Source of the DNA: Bacteroidales bacterium
GTDB lineage: Bacteria; Bacteroidota; Bacteroidia; Bacteroidales; GCA-2748055
Assembly: GCA_021738565.1 (NCBI GenBank)
Contig: JAIPBT010000017.1
Location: forward strand, 15,950 to 79,949
DNA length: 64,000 nt
Reading direction: 5' to 3'
Shown one piece after another: positions 53,116 through 63,771 of the stretch. The notes beneath the pieces were generated by a model. That model was not told the DNA's origin. It ran no database searches and saw only the letters and a program-made list of their open reading frames with translations. The number at the start of each line of letters is the position of its first letter. Positions within the stretch are counted from its first letter, which is position 1. The position numbers and the translations under genes were made by a program.

Positions 53116-54093
53116 ATGGAAAAGTCTCAGTTCATAAAGCTCTGTAACTCCTGGGCAGGAGAAGGAAAAACTTTTCTCTTTGTAATCGATTATGAACTGA
53201 ATGATTTTTACATATCCCTGACAGGCGATATTGATGAACGCTATGTTATTTATGCAATACCCGGGTATCAAAATGCCGTGAAAGCAGATTCTGAGAGGGA
53301 AAGAAAAGATTTCACATTTGAGATGCATCCGGTAAATTACGAAAGGTACAGGGAAGCCTTTGAGCTTGTAAAAAGAAATATATTTCACGGAAATTCCTTC
53401 CTGCTCAACCTTACATTTCCCACAGGAATCACAACGGATCTTACGCTCCGGGAGATATTTGACCGCAGTACGGCGAAATACAGACTCTGTTTTATGGACC
53501 GGTTTGTAGTATTCTCCCCTGAAACATTTGTAAGAATAAGTGATGATGCGATTTCCTCCTATCCAATGAAGGGAACCATTGATGCGGCTTTACCGGATGC
53601 CGAAAGGATCCTTTTGAACAACCAAAAAGAGAGATGGGAACACAATACCATCGTGGACCTGATCAGGAACGATCTTTCCATGGTATCCAAAAACGTGTCG
53701 TTAAAAAAATTCCGGTATATTGACCGTATTTCCACCAACAGGAACCAATTGCTCCAGGTAAGTTCAGAGATCAGGGGTGAACTTGAACCGGGCTGGAAAC
53801 AACGCCTCGGGGATATCCTGCTGAAGATGCTTCCTGCAGGATCCATTTCCGGGGCCCCGAAAAAGAAGACTTTAGAGATAATTGCAGAGGCAGAAGGTGC
53901 CCCCAGGGGGTATTTTACAGGAATTTTTGGCATCTTTGACAGGAACAGGATGGACAGTGCAGTGATGATCCGCTACATTGAAAAAACAGATCGCGGCCTT
54001 CAGTTTCGGAGTGGGGGAGGAATAACGGGTCACAGCGATCCGCAATTGGAATACAAGGAAATGCTCGATAAAGTATATGTTCCCATTATTTGA
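53116..54093 (+). CDS. pabB: Aminodeoxychorismate synthase component I, short form
   Basis: SPETF, PMKGTI, EHNTIVDLIRNDL, PAGSISGAPK and SGGGIT motifs. Confidence 0.9.
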   Translation: MEKSQFIKLCNSWAGEGKTFLFVIDYELNDFYISLTGDIDERYVIYAIPGYQNAVKADSERERKDFTFEMHPVNYERYREAFELVKRNIFHGNSFLLNLTFPTGITTDLTLREIFDRSTAKYRLCFMDRFVVFSPETFVRISDDAISSYPMKGTIDAALPDAERILLNNQKERWEHNTIVDLIRNDLSMVSKNVSLKKFRYIDRISTNRNQLLQVSSEIRGELEPGWKQRLGDILLKMLPAGSISGAPKKKTLEIIAEAEGAPRGYFTGIFGIFDRNRMDSAVMIRYIEKTDRGLQFRSGGGITGHSDPQLEYKEMLDKVYVPII

Positions 54094-54676
54094 AACCATA
54101 AGGATAAGAGAGGGTGTTCCGCAGCATCTTGAGTGGCACCAAAAGCGGCTTGACCGTTCATTTCATCTCTTCTTTAAAATGAAGAGGGCCCCGGTGCTTG
54201 CAGAAGTGATTCGCGTTCCGGAAGAATACAGGCGGGGAACTGTCAAATGCAGGTTTTTTTATAACCGTGGGGCATATGAATCTGATTTCTCTCAGTACAC
54301 TCCACTCTCAGTCAATTTGCTTAAGGCAGTAAAATGTGATTATATCGATTATTCAATGAAATTTACCGATAGGTTTATACTGGAACAACTATTGGAAAAA
54401 CGGGAGGACTGTGATGACATACTTATAATAAAGCAAAGCGAAATTACAGACACGTCCTATTCCAACATTGCATTTTATGATGGCAGGGAATGGCTTACAC
54501 CTGCAAACCCGCTTCTGGAAGGAACGTGCAGGAGCAGGCTGCTGTATCAAAATAAAATAAGGGAAAAAGTTATCACTTTGAAGGACTTGCAGGGATTCAA
54601 TTCATTCAGGCTGATCAATGCCATGCTGGATTTTGATCAACAGGATCCCAGGCCCGTATCGAATATTATTCATTAA
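54077..54676 (+). CDS. pabC: Class IV aminotransferase-like aminodeoxychorismate lyase
   Basis: LFETI, HQKRL, TDTSYSN and LLEGTCR motifs; overlaps pabB. Confidence 0.8.
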   Translation: MFPLFETIRIREGVPQHLEWHQKRLDRSFHLFFKMKRAPVLAEVIRVPEEYRRGTVKCRFFYNRGAYESDFSQYTPLSVNLLKAVKCDYIDYSMKFTDRFILEQLLEKREDCDDILIIKQSEITDTSYSNIAFYDGREWLTPANPLLEGTCRSRLLYQNKIREKVITLKDLQGFNSFRLINAMLDFDQQDPRPVSNIIH

Positions 54677-54688
54677 AAACATACCACA

Positions 54689-55675
54689 ATGAAGAATTTT
54701 ATATTTCTGCTGGCTTTTGCCTCTGTTTTTTGCAGCTGCAGCCGGCTCGCAAATGAATCTGAAAAACGGATACCTGTGATCCTTGACACGGATGCAAACA
54801 ATGAACTGGATGACCAGCATGCAATCGCCTATATGCTGACAAACCAGGATGTTTTTGACATTGTTGGTATAACGGTCAATTCTACAAAAAACGGAGGACT
54901 GATCGATAATCATTATACAGAGGCGGTCAGGATTCTGACACTGTTCAACGAACAGGAAAATATCATTGTGAAGCGGGGAGCAGATGCTGCCTTCGACAGG
55001 ATCAGGGGCAGAATGGATTCGGGAGATTATGACGGGAAAGATGCCGTTGAATTCATTATTGAGAAAGCCAGGGATTTTAAAGACGGAAAACTCGTTTTGT
55101 CGCCCATTGGAAAGCTTACAAATATCGCTCTCGCCATCCAAAAGGCGCCTGACATCATGGACCGTGTGACGATCATCTGGCTGGGATCGAATTATCCGGA
55201 TCCCGGAGAATACAACCTGGTAAATGATACTGCTGCATTAAATTACATTCTGAACCAGGATGTTCATTTTGAGATGGTCACTGTAAGTTATGACCGTGAG
55301 ACAGGTACTACCGCTATCCGTGTTTCATTGCCTGAAATTGACTCTGTGATGCCTGGTAAAGGGCCTGTTATTGAGGGATTTATCACCGGTCGCCATGGCG
55401 GTACTTTCAATAATTTTGGAGATTATTCAGTAAACCTGTTTCATCATATTGACCTGTATGGAGACCCCCCTTCAAGGTCATTATTTGACGTAGGGGCGGT
55501 TGCAGTTTTGAAAAATCCGGGATGGGCAGAATCAAGAAAGATTCCTGCTCCTTACTATGATTCTGCAGGATGGGTCGATCAGCCGGACAATTACCGGGAG
55601 ATCATACTCTGGGAAAATTTTAACAGGGACAGCATTGTCAATGACCTGTATCGTTCTCTTCTGCAGACCGAATAA
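54689..55675 (+). CDS. Nucleoside hydrolase (IUNH family), predicted lipoprotein
   Basis: Signal peptide with VFCSC; ILDTDANNELDD, GKLTNIALA, EYN and LFD motifs. Confidence 0.85.
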   Translation: MKNFIFLLAFASVFCSCSRLANESEKRIPVILDTDANNELDDQHAIAYMLTNQDVFDIVGITVNSTKNGGLIDNHYTEAVRILTLFNEQENIIVKRGADAAFDRIRGRMDSGDYDGKDAVEFIIEKARDFKDGKLVLSPIGKLTNIALAIQKAPDIMDRVTIIWLGSNYPDPGEYNLVNDTAALNYILNQDVHFEMVTVSYDRETGTTAIRVSLPEIDSVMPGKGPVIEGFITGRHGGTFNNFGDYSVNLFHHIDLYGDPPSRSLFDVGAVAVLKNPGWAESRKIPAPYYDSAGWVDQPDNYREIILWENFNRDSIVNDLYRSLLQTE

Positions 55676-56678
55676 TATCATACACACCATTTACCCAGTT
55701 GTCGCTGGCATTCAGGCTTTGAGCCATGACGAAGTTTTTGCCTCCTGAGGCGATGAAAAGATCATGGTATTCCATCTCTATTTCTATGGTTGTTTCCAGA
55801 CAGTCTGCAACAAATGAGGCAGGTACCACAAGTATATTTTTGACCCCTGCTCTGGCGAGTTCAACAAGTCTTCTGTCAGTGAAGGGCTTCAGCCAGTTTT
55901 TTGACAGCCTCGACTGAAAGGAGGTTGAGTAATTGTTGACTGCAAGTTCCAATTTTCTGGCCATTATCCGGGTCGTTTCATAGCAGGATGCGCGATAGCA
56001 TTCTTTGCCGTGGTCGGGCATTATATCCGGACAGCTACAGGTGTGGACCGGTATCCCGGGGTGGCATTTTTGAACCTGTCGCAGGGGAAGTCCGTGGTAG
56101 GAGAACAAAACATGATCGAATGTCTTCAGATCGTAACGGACCAAATTCTGATGCCATGATTCGATAAATGCGAGGTGATCATAGAACTGATCGATAAACC
56201 TGACCGGACCTTTGTAACCAAGATCTTTTGTTTTTTCTGCAACCAGTTTTTTTACCGAACCCGTGGTGGAATCAGCAAACTGTGGGTATAACGGTAAAAT
56301 ACTTAGAGGACCAGGTTCGTTGCGCATGTATTCGTCAAGGAACTTTTCAAGCGAAGGTTCCCCGTATCTCATTAAGCCATGGATCTCCACATGACCGCCT
56401 GTTTTCTTCTCCAGTTTTTCAGCAAGTTGTTTCAAATGAAAAAGTAAAGGTGAACCTTCGGGTTTCCATAGCAAATGGTATTTTTTTGCAGATTGCGGAG
56501 CCCTGAAGGGTACGATGATGAAATTTACGAGTGCCATGCGGAGCAATGGCCGAATGTCGATCACAAGGGGATCATTCAGAAATTCCCGCAGGTATTTTCT
56601 GACCTCTTTTTTTGCCGGGGAAGCAGGGGTTCCGACATTTACAAGTATCCAGGTTTCCTTCTTATCGGTTTTTTTCAT
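55638..56678 (-). CDS. hemH: Ferrochelatase (protoporphyrin type) with Cys-rich insertion
   Basis: LVNVGTP, YLREFLND, LPLYPQF, FSYHGLP, FQSRL..WLKP and FVADCLET motifs. Confidence 0.95.
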   Translation of the reverse strand: MKKTDKKETWILVNVGTPASPAKKEVRKYLREFLNDPLVIDIRPLLRMALVNFIIVPFRAPQSAKKYHLLWKPEGSPLLFHLKQLAEKLEKKTGGHVEIHGLMRYGEPSLEKFLDEYMRNEPGPLSILPLYPQFADSTTGSVKKLVAEKTKDLGYKGPVRFIDQFYDHLAFIESWHQNLVRYDLKTFDHVLFSYHGLPLRQVQKCHPGIPVHTCSCPDIMPDHGKECYRASCYETTRIMARKLELAVNNYSTSFQSRLSKNWLKPFTDRRLVELARAGVKNILVVPASFVADCLETTIEIEMEYHDLFIASGGKNFVMAQSLNASDNWVNGVYDIIRSAEENDTGH

Positions 56679-58041
56679 TCAATATTTGTTGTGCAATCTC
56701 ATAACCCTGTTTTACCCGGTCAGCCATTCCAATGCCATCCCTGATGTTTCCTCCTAAGAAAAGCCCGGGATGCTCAGATTCAATTTTACTGATGGCTGAT
56801 AACCTTTCCCCGGAGGTTATGTCATACTGCGGAATGGCATGTTTGTATCGAAATATGTTCAATATATCCGGATTGCTGTTTTTTTGTCCAAGCATCTCAC
56901 TGATCTCATTTAAAACTGTTTTTTGAATTTCATCATCTTCCTTTTCAAACAATTCGGGGTGTTTTATCCCACCAAGGAATACTGATAAAACGGCACCTCC
57001 TTCCGGCGCCCTGTTATTGAATATCGACGAAGTGAATAACACGCCCAGTACCTTTCTTTTTTCTTTTGAAGGAACCAAACCTCCGAATGCATCAAGAGGG
57101 ATGCCGTTCCATTTCCTATAGCCTGCGACTACCTGTATCACTTTTGCATAGGGAAGTGTTTCCACCGGTTTCAGTTCATCTTCCTCTATGAATTTCAATA
57201 TACCTTTTAACTCTTTTGCACCCGTGGCAGTGACCAGGTATTTTGAATGCAGGCTGTATTCCCGGTTGTGGGCAGAAAAAGAAGTCACATAGTTTGTATC
57301 AGCATGATCAATTTTAATTTCAGAAGCATTCAGATAGATGTTTTCAGATCCCGTGACACCTGCCATGGCATCGGTAAGTTTCTGTAACCCGCCTTTTACG
57401 GAGAAAACCTCCCTGGTTGCTCTTTTTGTAAGTTCATCCTTTGGCTCTTTTCGTTTTTTTATGGATCCGCCTATAAAGCTTCCGTAATTTTGTTCCAACC
57501 GGTACAATTTCGGCAGCGCGTAGCGCGTAATCAACTGGTCCGGATATCCGGCATAGATCCCTGAAATAAAGGGATCAACTGCATAATCAAGGTAACTTTT
57601 TCCCATCCTCCTTTTTACAAGTCCTGCCACAGTTTCATCGGGATTCGTGCCCCTTTTCCTGAAGGGTTCTGCAAGGATCCGAAATTTGTCTTTGGGTGTA
57701 AACAAAGGGGTGCTTACAGCTGAAATCAATCCCGAAGGCAGGGCATGCCATTTACCACTCTTCCAAATCCATCGCTGCTTCCCTTTTTGATTGGCAAATT
57801 CAGGTATGGCAAGTCCGTCCAGGTCATCAAAAAGTCTTACAAGCTCAAATGTGGAGTATACCCCCGTATTGGGACCGGCCTCATAGATAAAACCATCTTT
57901 CCGTATGGTTTGAATAACACCGCCGGTTCTATCATTTTTCTCAAGTACGGCAATTTTTTTCCCGGCTTTCTTCAGGTAGAATGCTGCTGTTAGACCCGTT
58001 AAGCCGCTGCCAATTATAGTAATGTCAATATTGGTATTCAT
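56662..58041 (-). CDS. hemY: FAD-dependent protoporphyrinogen oxidase, HemY type
   Basis: IIGSGLTGL, GGVIQT, EAGPNT, SGIYAG, FGGLVP and AIPQY motifs. Confidence 0.92.
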   Translation of the reverse strand: MNTNIDITIIGSGLTGLTAAFYLKKAGKKIAVLEKNDRTGGVIQTIRKDGFIYEAGPNTGVYSTFELVRLFDDLDGLAIPEFANQKGKQRWIWKSGKWHALPSGLISAVSTPLFTPKDKFRILAEPFRKRGTNPDETVAGLVKRRMGKSYLDYAVDPFISGIYAGYPDQLITRYALPKLYRLEQNYGSFIGGSIKKRKEPKDELTKRATREVFSVKGGLQKLTDAMAGVTGSENIYLNASEIKIDHADTNYVTSFSAHNREYSLHSKYLVTATGAKELKGILKFIEEDELKPVETLPYAKVIQVVAGYRKWNGIPLDAFGGLVPSKEKRKVLGVLFTSSIFNNRAPEGGAVLSVFLGGIKHPELFEKEDDEIQKTVLNEISEMLGQKNSNPDILNIFRYKHAIPQYDITSGERLSAISKIESEHPGLFLGGNIRDGIGMADRVKQGYEIAQQILNEKNR

Positions 58042-58044
58042 TTT

Positions 58045-59430
58045 TCAAAGCGCTTTGGAATATTTGTTAACCTGTTCCTTGTACTCCGGGTCAAGAGATG
58101 CTGCAATATTTCTTATGAACATGGATCCCGTTTCTGTTATCAGAATTGATTCATCGTCATATTCAATGAGTCCATCCTGTTCAAACCCGGACAACAAATC
58201 CTGATCATAACGGATGACGTTTTTGAGCTTTTCCATGGCAATGTTCAAATTTTTTGTCATTGACGACCATTGTATTTTTTTATTGCACATGAGATGGGTG
58301 ATCACTTCTCGGGTTATGATCTGATCGTCAGTGACTTCAAGTCTCTTTTCAACCGGACTTCTGTTTCCAATTATTAAATTAATATATTTTTCAACCGATT
58401 TTGTATTCTGCAAATAGACCTTTTCAAGCTGGCTGATCGCTGAAACACCGAATGCATAAACCTGGCCCGTGTTCTGCCTGGTGCAATAACCCTGGAAATT
58501 TCTGTGCAGTTGATTGTTCTTCAATGCATTGTACAATTCATCATCTTTGCTGACGTAATGGTCAAGTCCGATGGGCTGGTAACCTTTTGAAGTCAGCACA
58601 TTGTATCCGGCAAGGAACATCTTCGTTTTCTCTTCGGCCCCTGGCAATCCCCTTTTTTCAAGAATTTGCTGGTGTTTTTTAAGCCACGGGACATGTGCAT
58701 AAGAGAAGGTTACCATCCTGTCGGGGTTCAAAGCTGCGGCCTGTTCCATGGTTTCAGTAAAACCGGCAACATCCTGTCCCGGAAGTCCATAAATAAAATC
58801 CAGGTTGATTGCAGCTTTACTGTTTTTATTCCGTACATAAGAAATAAGTTCATTCAGAGGCAGGGCGCTTGGTTCCCTGTTCACTCCGGCAAGCACATCG
58901 GTATTTAGATCCTGGATTCCAAAACTGAACCTGTTGAAGCCATGGGTTATTAAATGATCGATATAATCTTTGTCCAGGTATGCCGGATTGGTCTCTATCG
59001 CAATTTCTGCATCTAAGGCGAAATTAAATTTCTTTTTAAAAAACTCTACGATACCGGTGATCTTTTCGGAAGGGATGGAATTTGGAGTGCCACCTCCGAA
59101 GTGGACCTGAGTTACCAGTCGCTTCTTATCAATATGGTCGGACACCATTTCTATTTCGCACATCAGCGCACTGATGTATGCTTCAACTTCATTATTGCTT
59201 CTCAGGGTACAGGCATTGCATCCGCAGTAAAAACAAATTTTCCTGCAAAAGGGAATATGAACATACAATGCAATGTGACGCGGGTCCCAATTGTTTGACA
59301 TATCCACAAACATTGTATGATCCTTGTTCCCTGCCTGATCAATAAAATGGTTGGCGGGTGGATAACTGGTGTAACGCGGTACAGGTATGTTGTACTTTTC
59401 AAGTAGTATTACCGGTATATTCATATTCAT
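58045..59430 (-). CDS. hemN: Oxygen-independent coproporphyrinogen III dehydrogenase
   Basis: PRYTSYP, HIPFCRKICFYCGC, GGGTP and RNFQGY; these mark true HemN, not HemW. Confidence 0.95.
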   Translation of the reverse strand: MNMNIPVILLEKYNIPVPRYTSYPPANHFIDQAGNKDHTMFVDMSNNWDPRHIALYVHIPFCRKICFYCGCNACTLRSNNEVEAYISALMCEIEMVSDHIDKKRLVTQVHFGGGTPNSIPSEKITGIVEFFKKKFNFALDAEIAIETNPAYLDKDYIDHLITHGFNRFSFGIQDLNTDVLAGVNREPSALPLNELISYVRNKNSKAAINLDFIYGLPGQDVAGFTETMEQAAALNPDRMVTFSYAHVPWLKKHQQILEKRGLPGAEEKTKMFLAGYNVLTSKGYQPIGLDHYVSKDDELYNALKNNQLHRNFQGYCTRQNTGQVYAFGVSAISQLEKVYLQNTKSVEKYINLIIGNRSPVEKRLEVTDDQIITREVITHLMCNKKIQWSSMTKNLNIAMEKLKNVIRYDQDLLSGFEQDGLIEYDDESILITETGSMFIRNIAASLDPEYKEQVNKYSKAL

Positions 59431-60626
59431 TTCTTTTTTGGCATGGCATACAAAATAACAAACATAGTAACCAGTCCCAGCAAAGCTTCCAGTCCGAACA
59501 ATCCTCTGTAGCCCAGGGCATCAGCAATTTTTCCACTGGAAACAGCAATTGCAAGACTGCTGAGGTGTGTGATCACAATCTGTATTGTAAAATCTGTTCC
59601 TGCAGCACCCTGGCGTACCACGTCCATGGATGTTGTGTAAATAATTACAGACGAGGATCCATAAGTGGCCCAAACGAAACATATTCCAACATATATCAAT
59701 GTGAGTGCAGGAGATTGTATGCCAGACATCCACCAGAAATAAATTGCTGTTGAAATTCCCAGGGACGTCAGAAGGATCATTGCCTTGTTTCTGCCTGTCT
59801 GCCTGATTAGCAGACCGGCCAGGATGGCACTTATTGTGGCAACCGAGGTGCCAATGATGCCTGACATGAATCCTATTTGTTTGATATTGTATCCAAGGTC
59901 AACAAGATACGGTTTCAACATGGTGAGAACTCCTATGAAACCGGAGTAATAAAAGACCAGTATAAGGACGCGTTTGGGTATCCCGGGCATATTGAAGAAC
60001 CTTCCGATTTCACGAACTGATACCCGGTACCCCTCTTTCTTTTCAATGGTTCGATCTGTTTTATAGAACTGAAGGGGTATGATAGCAAACACAACAAACG
60101 CAGCCAGCATGAAGAGAAATACAGACCATCCGAAAAAACTGTATGCAATCAATAAAACACCGGTACCGATCAGGGCACCAACAAAACTTCCGGCCGTTTG
60201 CATACTGTTTCCAACCCCCCTTTCATTCTTCCTGAGGATCATGATAGCAAAAGCATCTGTCGCAATGTCCTGCGTTGCTGAGGCCGTAAAGGCCACAATC
60301 ATAAGAGCTACAATGAACTTGAAATCAGTCTGAAGGTTTAAAAATGCAATGCTGCAGATCACCACTGCATAAAACATTTCAGAAAGGACGATCCATCTTT
60401 TCAGGTCCTTTGAATTCCTTGATGAATTATCCACAAGGGGCGCCCAAAGGAATTTTATAATCCATGGCAGCTTCACCAGTTGTAACAGTCCGATAGATTC
60501 CAAAGAGTAATTTTCCTGGCGCATGATCACTGGCACCACCGTTGAAAAGAAGCTCATCGGAACAGACTGGGCGATATAGAGGCTAAAAAGTGTTGGAAAC
60601 TTGGTCCAGTTTTTTGATGCGGTCAT
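59427..60626 (-). CDS. MFS permease, AmpG/RhtX/FptX family
   Basis: SLYIAQSVP, LPWIIKFLWAPLVD, ASATQDIATDA and AGTDFTIQ motifs; about 12 TM segments. Confidence 0.88.
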   Translation of the reverse strand: MTASKNWTKFPTLFSLYIAQSVPMSFFSTVVPVIMRQENYSLESIGLLQLVKLPWIIKFLWAPLVDNSSRNSKDLKRWIVLSEMFYAVVICSIAFLNLQTDFKFIVALMIVAFTASATQDIATDAFAIMILRKNERGVGNSMQTAGSFVGALIGTGVLLIAYSFFGWSVFLFMLAAFVVFAIIPLQFYKTDRTIEKKEGYRVSVREIGRFFNMPGIPKRVLILVFYYSGFIGVLTMLKPYLVDLGYNIKQIGFMSGIIGTSVATISAILAGLLIRQTGRNKAMILLTSLGISTAIYFWWMSGIQSPALTLIYVGICFVWATYGSSSVIIYTTSMDVVRQGAAGTDFTIQIVITHLSSLAIAVSSGKIADALGYRGLFGLEALLGLVTMFVILYAMPKKK

Positions 60627-62734
60627 CAGAATTCATATCTAAGATTAAGCCCAAAGCACAGGGGTTTTCCGGTTTGAACATATTGATTTCCAAGTGCCTG
60701 AAAATAAAAGGCATCATACTCTGTTCCAAGCAGGTTCTTTCCCCAGAATTCAAGACCCATATTGTTTTTGTGAAAAGAGATCTTGGCATCCAGGAGTCCA
60801 TAAAAACCGGTTTTAAATGAATTCTCTTCATTCCAGTAGATATCTCCCAGACCACGGTACATTGCATTGAATCCAATTTTGTCCAGGAAATTGATCCCAT
60901 TCATTCTGAAATACCTTTTAACGATCACATTCACTGTGTGTTTTGGAATGTATGGAATGTAATTGCCCGTGTGGTCTGTTTCATTATCCACTTTGTGTTC
61001 TGTGAAAACTGCATGTGTAAATCCGTAAGACAGGGCAGGGATGAATCCTTTTATCGCCGCTGTTTTTATGGAAATTTCACCTCCTTTGCTTACAGATTTG
61101 CCGGCATTTTTCAGCAGGGAGCCGGGTGCAGGTGTATTGTCCTTATAAAATGCAGGCTGGTATATCTGCTGGTTTTTCCAGTCAATATAGAAAAGCGAAA
61201 TGTCTGTATAAAGGAAACTGTTGAAAAGGACGGACTTAAATCCTGCTTCATAGCTCCAGCTGAATTCAGGATCAAAGAAAAGGTCCTCATCCTTGTAGAA
61301 TGTTGAGTTGAATCCGCCGGTTTTATAACCTTTTGCAACTACCGCATAAATGCTGCTCCTGTTCAATTTGTAGTTTGCTGCTATTTTGGGAAGGATCTCC
61401 ATATAGGTAAGATCCGGATAGGTTGTATCAGCCATATTGACCATGTTGCCTGACCGTAAGATGTCGTAGGTGTAGTCAAGAATGTCCTGCTCAAAATCGA
61501 ATCTTATCCCTGCCGTTAGTGATAGGTTTTCAACCAGGAAATCATCTAATGTCGATTGGTGAAATACTGCAGCACCGGAAATTGTCTTGTCATATTTCTT
61601 AAATACAGTCACATCCCTCTGGTATATATCGACATCCACATGTTTATCGAATCTCTGCATGAATCCATAGGCACCGAAAAGCCAGTTGTACCTCTTATGG
61701 CTGGGGGAGCGGATGATTAACTCCTGGGAAATCATATGTTGTCGCTGTTCCTGGACGACAAAGTAGGCAGAATCCGGTGTGAAGTCCTGGTCAATGTTTT
61801 GTTGATCATCAAGGTATTGATAGGCAGTGGTGGCAACAAGCTCAACATTATCCCCGGAAAAATTGACAACCAATGCATCAGAGAACAGGGACCTGTTATA
61901 GGAACTGGGCTGGTTGTAATTGATGTCATTCGGGATCATAAGCGAATCATTGAGAATGGCATAGGGATAGCCACCTTCGCGGCTCTCTTCAAATGATACA
62001 ATATGCTCCACACGAAGCCGGTCAGTTATTTTCCAGGTCAATTTATTCCTGAGACCGAAAGAATGGGCCTTGTCTACCTGGTCGTTGAGGAAACTGTTGG
62101 TGTAAAAGCCATCCCTGTAACTGTAATTCATTGATATAGAATAACCAAAATTTTCTCCGGCCTTATTGTAGTGTCCCAGGTTGGCTGCAATATTGCCGTA
62201 ATTACCTGCTGAAAGAATCATTCTTGTACCCTGGTAATGCAGGGGAGACCTGGTGATGACATTGATTATTCCACCCATTGCATTCCTCCCATACAGTGTG
62301 CCCTGGGGGCCTTTAAGGATCTCAATTCTTTCTACATCAAAAAAATCGAAATCATAGGCGGCTTTTTCAAAATAAGGAACATGATCAACATACAATCCAA
62401 CGGAAGGACTGTTGATTCTTGAACCAATACCGCGGATGTATACAGGTGATGTTAGTTTTGAGCCGTAATCCGGCATAAAGAAACCGGGAGCAATGGCGGT
62501 GAGGTCGTTTAAGGACTGTACTTCATTTTCACTGATCGTTTTGGAAGATACCATATTGACAGTTGCAGGCATCTTTTTCAGGGTTAGGTTGTTTTTTGAA
62601 GAGCTGATTTGAATTTCTTCCAGGTGAAGTTCAGGAACTTCAGTACTGTCGGTAAGTATTATTACCTCCTGTGCATAATTGTTCTGAATGACCATCTGCA
62701 TTAGCAGGATCATGAAAATATATTTGATTTTCAT
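60626..62734 (-). CDS. TonB-dependent receptor (siderophore/porphyrin class, not SusC)
   Basis: Signal peptide, TonB-box-like LEEIQIS, plug YIRGIG and VERIEILKGPQGTLYGRNAMGGIIN, GYKTGGFN, terminal Phe. Confidence 0.93.
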   Translation of the reverse strand: MKIKYIFMILLMQMVIQNNYAQEVIILTDSTEVPELHLEEIQISSSKNNLTLKKMPATVNMVSSKTISENEVQSLNDLTAIAPGFFMPDYGSKLTSPVYIRGIGSRINSPSVGLYVDHVPYFEKAAYDFDFFDVERIEILKGPQGTLYGRNAMGGIINVITRSPLHYQGTRMILSAGNYGNIAANLGHYNKAGENFGYSISMNYSYRDGFYTNSFLNDQVDKAHSFGLRNKLTWKITDRLRVEHIVSFEESREGGYPYAILNDSLMIPNDINYNQPSSYNRSLFSDALVVNFSGDNVELVATTAYQYLDDQQNIDQDFTPDSAYFVVQEQRQHMISQELIIRSPSHKRYNWLFGAYGFMQRFDKHVDVDIYQRDVTVFKKYDKTISGAAVFHQSTLDDFLVENLSLTAGIRFDFEQDILDYTYDILRSGNMVNMADTTYPDLTYMEILPKIAANYKLNRSSIYAVVAKGYKTGGFNSTFYKDEDLFFDPEFSWSYEAGFKSVLFNSFLYTDISLFYIDWKNQQIYQPAFYKDNTPAPGSLLKNAGKSVSKGGEISIKTAAIKGFIPALSYGFTHAVFTEHKVDNETDHTGNYIPYIPKHTVNVIVKRYFRMNGINFLDKIGFNAMYRGLGDIYWNEENSFKTGFYGLLDAKISFHKNNMGLEFWGKNLLGTEYDAFYFQALGNQYVQTGKPLCFGLNLRYEF

Positions 62735-62834
62735 TGTATTGGAGTTTTAAAATGAATGAATTTTTCATGATATAAATGCCCATTCAGGTCATTTGTGTCA
62801 TGAATTCATAATGTTGAATGTTATACCCGGAGTT

Positions 62835-63176
62835 TCAGGCGGAGGGTGGAGGGCGGGAATAAAGGCAGTTCAGAAAAGGTGCCCGCGGAATCAGACATTC
62901 TATTATAGGTACTTTAAAACGCGAAAGGAGAGATTGTACACGGAACTCCCGGTTTGCTGCTGGTTCAGCGCTGTAGTTGAAATAATGAAAAGTGTTGTGC
63001 TTCTGAATTTTTTCATCAGAAGCATCGGTGAGCTTAATATTTTTAGCAATTAGGCGGTCATTGACATCATCGTCTGCACCAGCCTTCATAATGGTATGAA
63101 AGCCAATGTAGGCCCCATAGAACATTGCTATGAGTATATAGGGCAGGTGTGTTGAAAATAGACCGACTGTGAACAT
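62835..63176 (-). CDS. Hypothetical leader protein with N-terminal TM and C-terminal RPPP motif
   Basis: 113 aa, hydrophobic residues 1-26, ends LYSRPPPSA*; stop lies 100 nt upstream of the receptor start. Confidence 0.75.
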   Translation of the reverse strand: MFTVGLFSTHLPYILIAMFYGAYIGFHTIMKAGADDDVNDRLIAKNIKLTDASDEKIQKHNTFHYFNYSAEPAANREFRVQSLLSRFKVPIIECLIPRAPFLNCLYSRPPPSA

Positions 63177-63372
63177 TGCTTCCTGTTTTCAAATGCAAAG
63201 AAAACATATTTTCTTTCAATAAAAAAGTTGATGTACAGTCAGTTTCTTTAATTTAAAAAGATTCTACCTAAAAAGATATATTTTAAATCAGATTGCTTTA
63301 TTTAAAATAAATTATTTAACTTGACCGGAGAATGATGGATATCAGGGAATGGTCCCTGAAAAGAATTGAAAC

Positions 63373-63771
63373 ATGGAAACATTACATATTGAAGGAACTT
63401 ACAGAACTCCCACCATATCATTGAACCCGGATGATGGTATCCTTAAGATCATGGGCAGGTCAAATCCTGAAAATGCAAGGGAATTCTATACCCCGGTTCT
63501 TAACTGGCTGGATGAATACATTACCCTGCCGGCCGAAAGGACAGACCTGCGTGTGAACCTGGAACATTTTAATACCAGCAGTTCAAAATTTCTTATGGAG
63601 ATTTTTCGAAGAATCCGTTACCTGGCTGATAAAGACAAGGCTTTTAATGTGAAGTGGCTGTATGAGGAAGATGATCTTGAAATGCTTGATACAGCTGAAG
63701 CATATGAGATGATGACGGGCCTCAGATTTGAAAAGATAAGCTATCCGGAAGGTGAAACACCGGATATTTGA
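63373..63771 (+). CDS. SiaC / DUF1987 family regulatory phosphoprotein
   Basis: TPTI, GRSNPENAREFY, FNTSSSK and WLYEEDD motifs. Confidence 0.88.
   Translation: METLHIEGTYRTPTISLNPDDGILKIMGRSNPENAREFYTPVLNWLDEYITLPAERTDLRVNLEHFNTSSSKFLMEIFRRIRYLADKDKAFNVKWLYEEDDLEMLDTAEAYEMMTGLRFEKISYPEGETPDI

Follow-up and report, generated by a model that had tools for sequence, protein, structure and literature searches.

This analysis concerns an operon in a 64,000-nt stretch of contig JAIPBT010000017.1 (hereafter the window, within which all positions are counted), from the Bacteroidales assembly GCA_021738565.1, which unites two predicted membrane importers with the last three enzymes of heme synthesis. 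All of its genes lie on the minus strand. Read in the coding direction, a small upstream open reading frame (ORF) of 113 aa (62835..63176), which appears in the ORF list and has homologues at the same place in relatives, is separated by a spacer of 100 nt, stop codon to start codon (62735..62834), from the gene of a TonB-dependent receptor (60626..62734, 702 aa) that contains plug and barrel domains and is predicted to bring a tetrapyrrole precursor across the outer membrane. There follow the genes of a permease of the major facilitator superfamily (MFS), assigned to the AmpG/RhtX/FptX group and predicted to be the inner-membrane importer (59427..60626, 399 aa), of HemN (58045..59430, 461 aa), of a HemY-type protoporphyrinogen IX oxidase (56662..58041, 459 aa) and of the ferrochelatase HemH (55638..56678, 346 aa). 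The receptor and permease genes overlap by 1 nt and those of the permease and HemN by 4 nt, HemN and HemY are 3 nt apart, and HemY and HemH overlap by 17 nt. A preliminary description of this DNA had read the five larger genes as an operon, and it placed the ORFs and their junctions exactly; Pfam and NCBIfam likewise agree with its identification of all five products. The five genes stand, but their count does not, as the operon comprises six genes when the conserved 113-aa ORF 100 nt upstream of the receptor is included.

The three enzymes were identified with ease. HemN, whose substrate is coproporphyrinogen III, scored 451 bits against the TIGR00538 cut-off of 325, and fell short of the cut-offs for both HutW (180 vs 400) and HemW (148 vs 205). 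Its residues 7-453 align end to end with residues 10-447 of E. coli HemN (1olt, 311 bits), and it keeps the radical SAM CxxxCxxC motif (HIPFCxKxCxYCgCN) as well as the GGGTP motif. The failure at the HemW cut-off matters because some Bacteroidota proteins named HemN are really HemW, as a 2026 paper warns (PMC13096392). HemY scored 269 bits for TIGR00562 (cut-off 98), carries the Amino_oxidase and NAD_binding_8 domains (an N-terminal FAD-binding fold) and, among solved structures, is closer to the protoporphyrinogen oxidases (PgoX) of tobacco (1sez, 198 bits) and Myxococcus (2ivd, 169 bits) than to B. subtilis HemY (3i6d, 138 bits). HemH matched PF00762 with 276 bits (cut-off 27) and TIGR00109 with 203 bits (cut-off 125), and resembles human protoporphyrin ferrochelatase (E 4e-18) more than it does coproporphyrin ferrochelatases (E 9e-5 and 1.5e-4). 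HemY and HemH are thus likely to be enzymes of the protoporphyrin branch (PgoX and PpfC), acting in the classical order HemN, HemY, HemH, though this assignment is a similarity ranking that alone does not fix substrate preference. By the same similarity to solved structures, the coproporphyrin-dependent branch (CgoX and CpfC with a decarboxylase) is less likely.

The two transporters are not so readily named. The receptor contains PF07715 (Plug, residues 52-156) and PF00593 (barrel, residues 244-668) in Pfam, as expected of the TonB-dependent receptor superfamily with its 22-strand barrel, and it scores below every NCBIfam receptor cut-off, including those of the siderophore subfamily TIGR01783 (135 vs 223 bits), its best match, and the hemin subfamily TIGR01785 (66 vs 317 bits). 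Among solved structures it is most similar to FyuA (4epa), the receptor for yersiniabactin, which it matches over the full length (E 5.5e-28), other solved receptors matching in the plug alone; a tblastn search of the genome found no paralogue of it at E<1e-15. The permease has an MFS_1 domain in Pfam, its best NCBIfam match is RhtX/FptX (TIGR02718, 165 bits, cut-off 356), it scores 148 bits for AmpG (TIGR00901, cut-off 350), and its best solved relative is AmpG (8zgz, E 4e-25). On these scores it is best described as a relative of both RhtX/FptX and AmpG and a member of neither, so that the RhtX/FptX type given to it in the preliminary description holds as a resemblance and fails as a family membership. 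It does share the RhtX/FptX-like trait of a gene that adjoins that of a TonB-dependent receptor, here with the 1-nt overlap. FyuA/YbtX (yersiniabactin), FptA/FptX (pyochelin) and RhtA/RhtX (rhizobactin 1021), encoded as operon neighbours, are receptor and permease pairs that import intact small organic chelates. Because this is the known layout for such cargo, we count the pairing of the receptor with an AmpG-like permease in favor of precursor import.

A side observation regarding the permease comes from three genomes of one genus (G003, G268 and G370), in which it matches in two pieces (residues ~7-197 and 202-393) within a single frame of 450-508 aa; this suggests, from the alignments, an insertion in the central loop.

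We next consider the genome in which the operon resides, a 3.98 Mb assembly that is 98.5% complete and was searched as a whole with protein families. ALAD/HemB, porphobilinogen deaminase/HemC and glutamyl-tRNA reductase were all without a match in it. It has six matches to the URO-D family, the best of which reaches 92 bits against a HemE cut-off of 303; as in Bacteroides thetaiotaomicron, these are probably relatives of the methyltransferase type. They are located on contigs C77, C45, C20, C17 and C44, two of them ~650 bases apart on C77. A single orphan HEM4 gene is found on another contig as well, in agreement with the earlier remark that the window holds none of hemA to hemE; extended to the genome, the search shows HemA, HemB, HemC and a true HemE to be missing. 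B. thetaiotaomicron, a known heme auxotroph that served as a control, presented the same early-pathway pattern. Heme is nevertheless needed, as the genome encodes subunit I of the heme-dependent cytochrome bd, and without the early enzymes HemN, HemY and HemH have no internal substrate. When the five proteins were compared with the genome by tblastn, the operon proved to hold its only HemN, HemY, HemH and permease, the other matches being a HemN paralogue that is 27% identical (contig C74) and a 72-residue match to the N-terminus of HemY (contig C20). Neither this genome, at its 98.5% completeness, nor the operon gave a match to HmuY (PF14064), whereas the B. thetaiotaomicron control did.

To see how far the arrangement extends, we turned to 80 permease loci obtained by scanning prokaryote genomes, one for each species; the permease in them is 43% to 79% identical to the query. 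All are from Bacteroidales or unclassified Bacteroidota, apart from a contig that carries a Chloroflexota label and two records whose only label is 'metagenome'. Linkage was counted by tblastn of the five window proteins, with loci that have room for the gene in question as the denominator. In 73/73 loci that extend 2300 nt or more upstream, the receptor ends no more than 800 nt before the permease. HemN follows the permease in 65/67 loci (in the two exceptions, L078 and L079, HemY comes directly after the permease), HemY follows in 58/60 (exceptions L074 and L083) and HemH in 35/56. This linkage persists down to 43% permease identity, and the gene arrangement is far beyond chance. The transporter-hem linkage first noted in the window is, accordingly, conserved across Bacteroidales. 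The genes around the module, by comparison, vary from locus to locus: a Pfam scan of 68 ORFs around 23 of the 80 loci (up to three ORFs per side, leader-like ORFs left out) revealed no further partner conserved across these flanks, and no conserved reductase, siderophore synthesis or Fur-type gene; the sole recurrence was a pair of DUF4491 genes, at 2/23 loci. The absence of a conserved partner in the flanks indicates that the module is self-contained.

Two observations on individual loci may be added. The DUF4491 genes stand in tandem directly upstream of the leader ORF (L067, 4517-5126; L078, 4723-5336). The Chloroflexota-labelled locus, L039, is a 5.4-kb contig with the receptor, the permease and a leader ending in RPPP, and since its permease is 67% identical to that of the window, the label is probably a binning error.

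If the module supplied what the early pathway no longer makes, it should be found where that pathway has been lost. We searched 401 sampled Bacteroidales genomes, one per species and many of them draft, for the permease, HemB and HemY, and found the permease in 57 (42 of 237 genera), HemB in 74 and HemY in 117. Among the genomes with HemY and without HemB, 48/55 carry the permease, in 40 cases within 4 kb of HemY, as opposed to 5/62 of those that have both HemY and HemB (odds ratio 78, Fisher p 3e-19, a value that overstates the significance since related genomes are not independent). Counted by genus, 35 with the permease stand against 7 without it when HemB is missing, and 5 against 47 when HemB is present. 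Five of the seven genomes that have HemY but neither HemB nor the permease belong to genera in which another sampled genome is HemB-positive. The enrichment expected by the preliminary description in genomes lacking the early pathway is thus borne out among those that retain HemY. Moreover, 21 of the 62 HemB-positive genomes have HemY no more than 10 kb from HemB, and the permease is missing from every one of these 21. HemY, in other words, neighbours early hem genes in prototrophs and the receptor-permease pair in auxotrophs. This split of the permease by HemB among HemY-bearing genomes is what a role in salvage predicts, and is not predicted by a role in iron supply. In a separate phylum-wide sample of 401 genomes, a permease orthologue (E <=1e-60) was present in the window's genome and three other Bacteroidales alone, with none in the ~390 genomes from other orders.

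Taken together, these results lead us to propose, with moderate confidence, that the six-gene operon serves to take up a late precursor of heme that is free of metal and is produced by other organisms, probably coproporphyrinogen III, and to finish it to heme. The precursor would cross the outer membrane through the receptor and the inner one through the AmpG-like MFS permease; HemN would then decarboxylate coproporphyrinogen III to protoporphyrinogen IX, HemY would oxidise this to protoporphyrin IX (PPIX), and HemH would insert the iron. Import of a metal-free tetrapyrrole for completion to heme is also what the preliminary description had suggested, and the missing early pathway and the conserved module, linked to the loss of HemB, support it, while the substrate is something we infer. 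Since HemY and HemH resemble enzymes of the protoporphyrin branch, coproporphyrinogen III or coproporphyrin III is, as judged from the sequences, the most likely cargo. The enzyme next to the permease is HemN; uroporphyrinogen would not be usable, there being no HemE in the genome, and with PPIX or heme as the cargo HemN and HemY would be pointless. Between the two forms, the porphyrinogen is favoured for habitats low in oxygen, given that the scanned flanks conserve no reductase. Porphyrinogens reportedly replaced heme for Bacteroides ruminicola, in work that later papers cite without quoting the statement.

It had been suggested earlier that HemY might run reductively, so as to reduce an oxidised coproporphyrin. 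This part of the preliminary description found no support: in a tree of HemY, 62 operon-linked and 20 prototroph sequences interleave, parsimony requiring 9 changes and well-supported branches forcing at least 3, and no reductase is conserved in cis. On this interleaving we reject a diverged clade of operon-type HemY, as a reverse function might predict, and see no sign of a specialised enzyme acting in reverse.

Several observations weigh against the proposed import of coproporphyrinogen III. Over all genomes the enrichment of the permease is weak (50/327 without HemB vs 7/74 with it) and becomes strong only after conditioning on HemY, because most HemB-negative Bacteroidales have lost HemY too. 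Seven of the 57 permease carriers have HemB, so the module is not confined to auxotrophs; among five HemB-positive carriers that we checked, three have no HemE, and two (G121 and G353) do have it, with their sole HemY adjoining the permease. For G121 and G353, then, de novo synthesis can make use of the enzymes, and the cell would not depend on import. The distribution is also patchy, as the three sampled genomes of the window's own family are without the permease. HemH, the last step, is absent from 21/56 loci, and of five carriers checked for a canonical ferrochelatase, two have it directly after HemY, one has it elsewhere, and two, the complete single-contig genomes G252 and G356, in which the permease stands beside HemY, are without any match to the Pfam ferrochelatase family. 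Nor did the B. thetaiotaomicron control give one, and an unrecognised chelatase may finish the pathway in the lineages of G252 and G356. With regard to chemistry, oxidised coproporphyrin III, if that is the form available, would need a reductase, and none is conserved in cis at the 23 loci; HemY, for its part, ordinarily uses oxygen, a difficulty for strict anaerobes. Lastly, the nearest named relatives of the transporters carry ferric siderophores (FyuA, RhtX/FptX) or muropeptides (AmpG) and not porphyrins, and it is from gene content and distribution that we infer transport by receptor and permease.

These relatives raise the alternative that the receptor and permease import an iron chelate, either a siderophore or a xenosiderophore, for use by the ferrochelatase, and that the porphyrin precursor enters by an unlinked route. 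Ferrochelatase does require iron, and the best matches of both transporters, namely FyuA and the siderophore-receptor subfamily for one and RhtX/FptX for the other, fit such a cargo; however, both proteins are far under the respective siderophore cut-offs (135 vs 223 and 165 vs 356 bits). Furthermore, HemH, which uses the iron, is the least conserved member of the module (35/56), whereas HemN abuts the permease in 65/67 loci, an iron supplier would have no reason to track the loss of HemB (48/55 vs 5/62), and the scanned flanks conserve no siderophore synthesis, reductase or Fur-type gene. We therefore consider an iron chelate an unlikely cargo.

We give little credence to a second alternative, by which the cargo of the pair is PPIX or heme and the cell retains HemN and HemY for some other reason. 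Bacteroidales do grow on heme or on PPIX plus iron (PMC6460266, PMC4696147, PMC12094164), and the receptor weakly matches the hemin-receptor subfamily over its full length, though with 66 bits it is far under the cut-off of 317. Yet HemN and HemY would be useless with such a cargo, and both are found intact by the permease (65/67 and 58/60 loci), while HemH is the member most often missing; in addition, there is no hemophore or CobN-like dechelatase in cis, and no HmuY in the genome.

It is very improbable, in our estimation, that the operon is a plain late heme pathway, with the adjoining transporters being unrelated passengers or exporters of excess porphyrin. The two checked carriers that have both HemB and HemE, and the operon's HemY as their only one, would suit this explanation, but the linkage of receptor and HemN to the permease (73/73 and 65/67) holds despite wholly different flanks, 50/57 carriers have no HemB, a TonB-dependent receptor is an import device, and HemY of prototrophs has early hem genes as its neighbours and not these transporters. 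Finally, an anaerobic heme-utilisation operon of the Chu/Hut type, in which 'HemN' would be the ring-opening enzyme ChuW/HutW that frees iron from imported heme, is scarcely tenable: HutW is the second-best NCBIfam match of the protein (180 bits) and Chu/Hut operons join a TonB-dependent receptor with a HemN-like radical SAM enzyme, but the protein passes the HemN cut-off (451 vs 325) and fails that of HutW (180 vs 400), matches E. coli HemN from one end to the other, and is accompanied by a HemY of the same orthologous group as prototroph HemY and by a canonical ferrochelatase.

The sixth gene of the operon, the small ORF upstream of the receptor, may have a regulatory role. The encoded peptide begins MFTVGLFSTHLPYILIAMFYGAYIGF, a hydrophobic N-terminus, and, past a variable middle, ends YSRPPPSA directly before the stop codon. 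An alignment of its homologues revealed the same organization, with conservation of the hydrophobic N-terminus (MFxxGxFSxxxPY...), variation in the middle and almost no change at the FS-RPPP end, and an ORF of ~110-130 aa ending in R[PGA]PP plus 2-4 residues was found in 45 of the 71 loci with at least 500 nt upstream. In L070-L087, which are host-associated, a search upstream of the receptor did not find the leader. A short ORF ahead of a gene, hydrophobic at its N-terminus and with R-x-P-P just before the stop, has the anatomy of RAPP-like arrest peptides, a class that has been described with RPPP among the motifs sought, and to which CruR belongs, a RAPP-bearing upstream ORF (uORF) said to regulate the TonB-dependent transporter BfrG in Bordetella (PMC10987492, PMC12992588). 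The leader is therefore likely, going by its sequence, to be a RAPP-like translation-arrest peptide; the ribosome, halted at the RPPP end, would tune expression of the receptor.

As to how such tuning might operate, the RNA between leader and receptor gave mixed results. No consensus structure emerged from 13 aligned leader-receptor spacers, and the predicted fold of positions 62715-62900 of the window, which contain the spacer, is unremarkable (z = -1.66). Compared with mononucleotide shuffles, the spacers had a mean z of -1.67, with 18/43 below -2, which is weak evidence of structure. The 3' end of the leader pairs with the receptor start region at <=-10 kcal/mol in 8/41 loci (L013, L038, L015, L014, L067, L066, L009 and L079), as compared with 2% of non-cognate pairs, and this would fit an unmasking of the start by a stalled ribosome. 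In the window itself the leader end does not pair with the receptor start (-3.3 kcal/mol). Given the lack of a conserved spacer structure and of pairing in the window, no regulatory mechanism can be claimed for it. Upstream of the leader, the intergenic region 63177..63372 (minus strand), which is shared with a divergent gene, is the presumed promoter region; a scan for promoters and terminators returned counts at or below shuffle expectation, using a sigma-70 consensus that does not fit Bacteroidota.

A bolder form of the proposal would be that ~1 in 7 Bacteroidales species obtain their heme through a system dedicated to importing and finishing coproporphyrinogen III, which would explain why heme auxotrophs retain the late enzymes, and that an RPPP arrest peptide anchored in the membrane switches this system, reporting tetrapyrrole or membrane status. 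We put this forward tentatively, as a possibility that we would rather doubt than assume.

As for the surroundings of the operon, the divergent gene (63373-63771, plus strand) encodes a SiaC-like regulatory phosphoprotein and has a counterpart at the equivalent place in the close relative L009 (4857-5261). On the other side, positions 53116-55675 (plus strand) encode the aminodeoxychorismate synthase PabB (455 bits, cut-off 275), a class-IV aminotransferase that is PabC-like and below the cut-offs, and a nucleoside hydrolase, whose 3' end overlaps that of hemH by 38 nt on opposite strands. L009 also has the nucleoside hydrolase downstream, and the SiaC-like gene and the hydrolase represent local synteny outside the module. 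The window is contained in full in a single sequencing run, labelled lake water metagenome, from which it may derive.

Although unable to make heme, many Bacteroidales keep the last enzymes of the pathway, and the module offers a concrete and widespread candidate for an importer which, among HemY-bearing genomes, is nearly confined to those without the early pathway. A literature search of full texts found no paper describing this operon. The reviews consulted name no importer for heme precursors, and treat the role of the late enzymes in auxotrophs as still a hypothesis (PMC12094164). Should the proposal hold, this would be the first named importer of a porphyrinogen, and heme intermediates, rather than heme alone, would be shared goods in lake, sediment and gut communities; it would also suggest a simple supplement for growing uncultured Bacteroidales, and would place a tetrapyrrole system among the few operons under RAPP-like arrest peptides. 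Cultured carriers exist, for example Mariniphaga sediminis SY21, Marinilabiliaceae JC040 and Hoylesella nanceiensis DSM 19126, which makes the idea directly testable.

Comparison with known systems helps to place the operon. Its leader is like ApdA, ApdP and SecM-type leaders in being a uORF by the gene it would regulate, with an N-terminal membrane or signal segment and Arg-x-Pro-Pro near the stop; it differs in that its motif is RPPP and not RAPP or RGPP. With Chu/Hut operons the window operon has in common a TonB-dependent receptor and a HemN-family radical SAM enzyme in one operon, but the window enzyme reaches the HemN cut-off and falls below that of HutW. The siderophore pairs FyuA/YbtX, FptA/FptX and RhtA/RhtX likewise set a receptor beside a 12-helix permease of the AmpG/RhtX/FptX group and take up a small organic cargo intact; here, in contrast, the partners in cis are heme enzymes and not genes for siderophore synthesis or release, the scores are below the cut-offs, and the pair tracks the loss of HemB.

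A parallel from further afield is provided by trypanosomatids such as Leishmania, which keep only the last three heme enzymes, implying uptake of coproporphyrinogen. They too lack the early pathway and retain the steps catalysed by coproporphyrinogen oxidase, protoporphyrinogen oxidase and ferrochelatase, but are eukaryotes with different enzyme types, and no linked transporter is known in them. Within the phylum, the Hmu (HmuYRSTUV) and Hus (HusA/HusB) systems of Porphyromonas and other Bacteroidota also serve TonB-dependent uptake of external tetrapyrroles in heme auxotrophs. The window operon differs from them in having no hemophore or CobN-like dechelatase, nor an HmuY anywhere in its genome, and in using an MFS permease, finishing enzymes in the same operon, and HemY rather than HemG. 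A review calls Hus uptake of coproporphyrinogen III or PPIX for HemN, HemG and HemH a 'theoretical hypothesis' (PMC12094164), and the use of coproporphyrinogen by these three enzymes in P. gingivalis, possibly via Hus, is treated as an untested hypothesis (PMC12094164, PMC13096392). With the classical protoporphyrin-dependent late pathway (HemN, HemY/HemG/HemJ, HemH) the operon shares all three enzymes, each over its equivalog cut-off. What sets the operon apart from this pathway is that the window genome is without the steps before coproporphyrinogen III, and that HemY, which stands near HemB in prototroph Bacteroidales (21/62), is found in the window behind a receptor and a permease.

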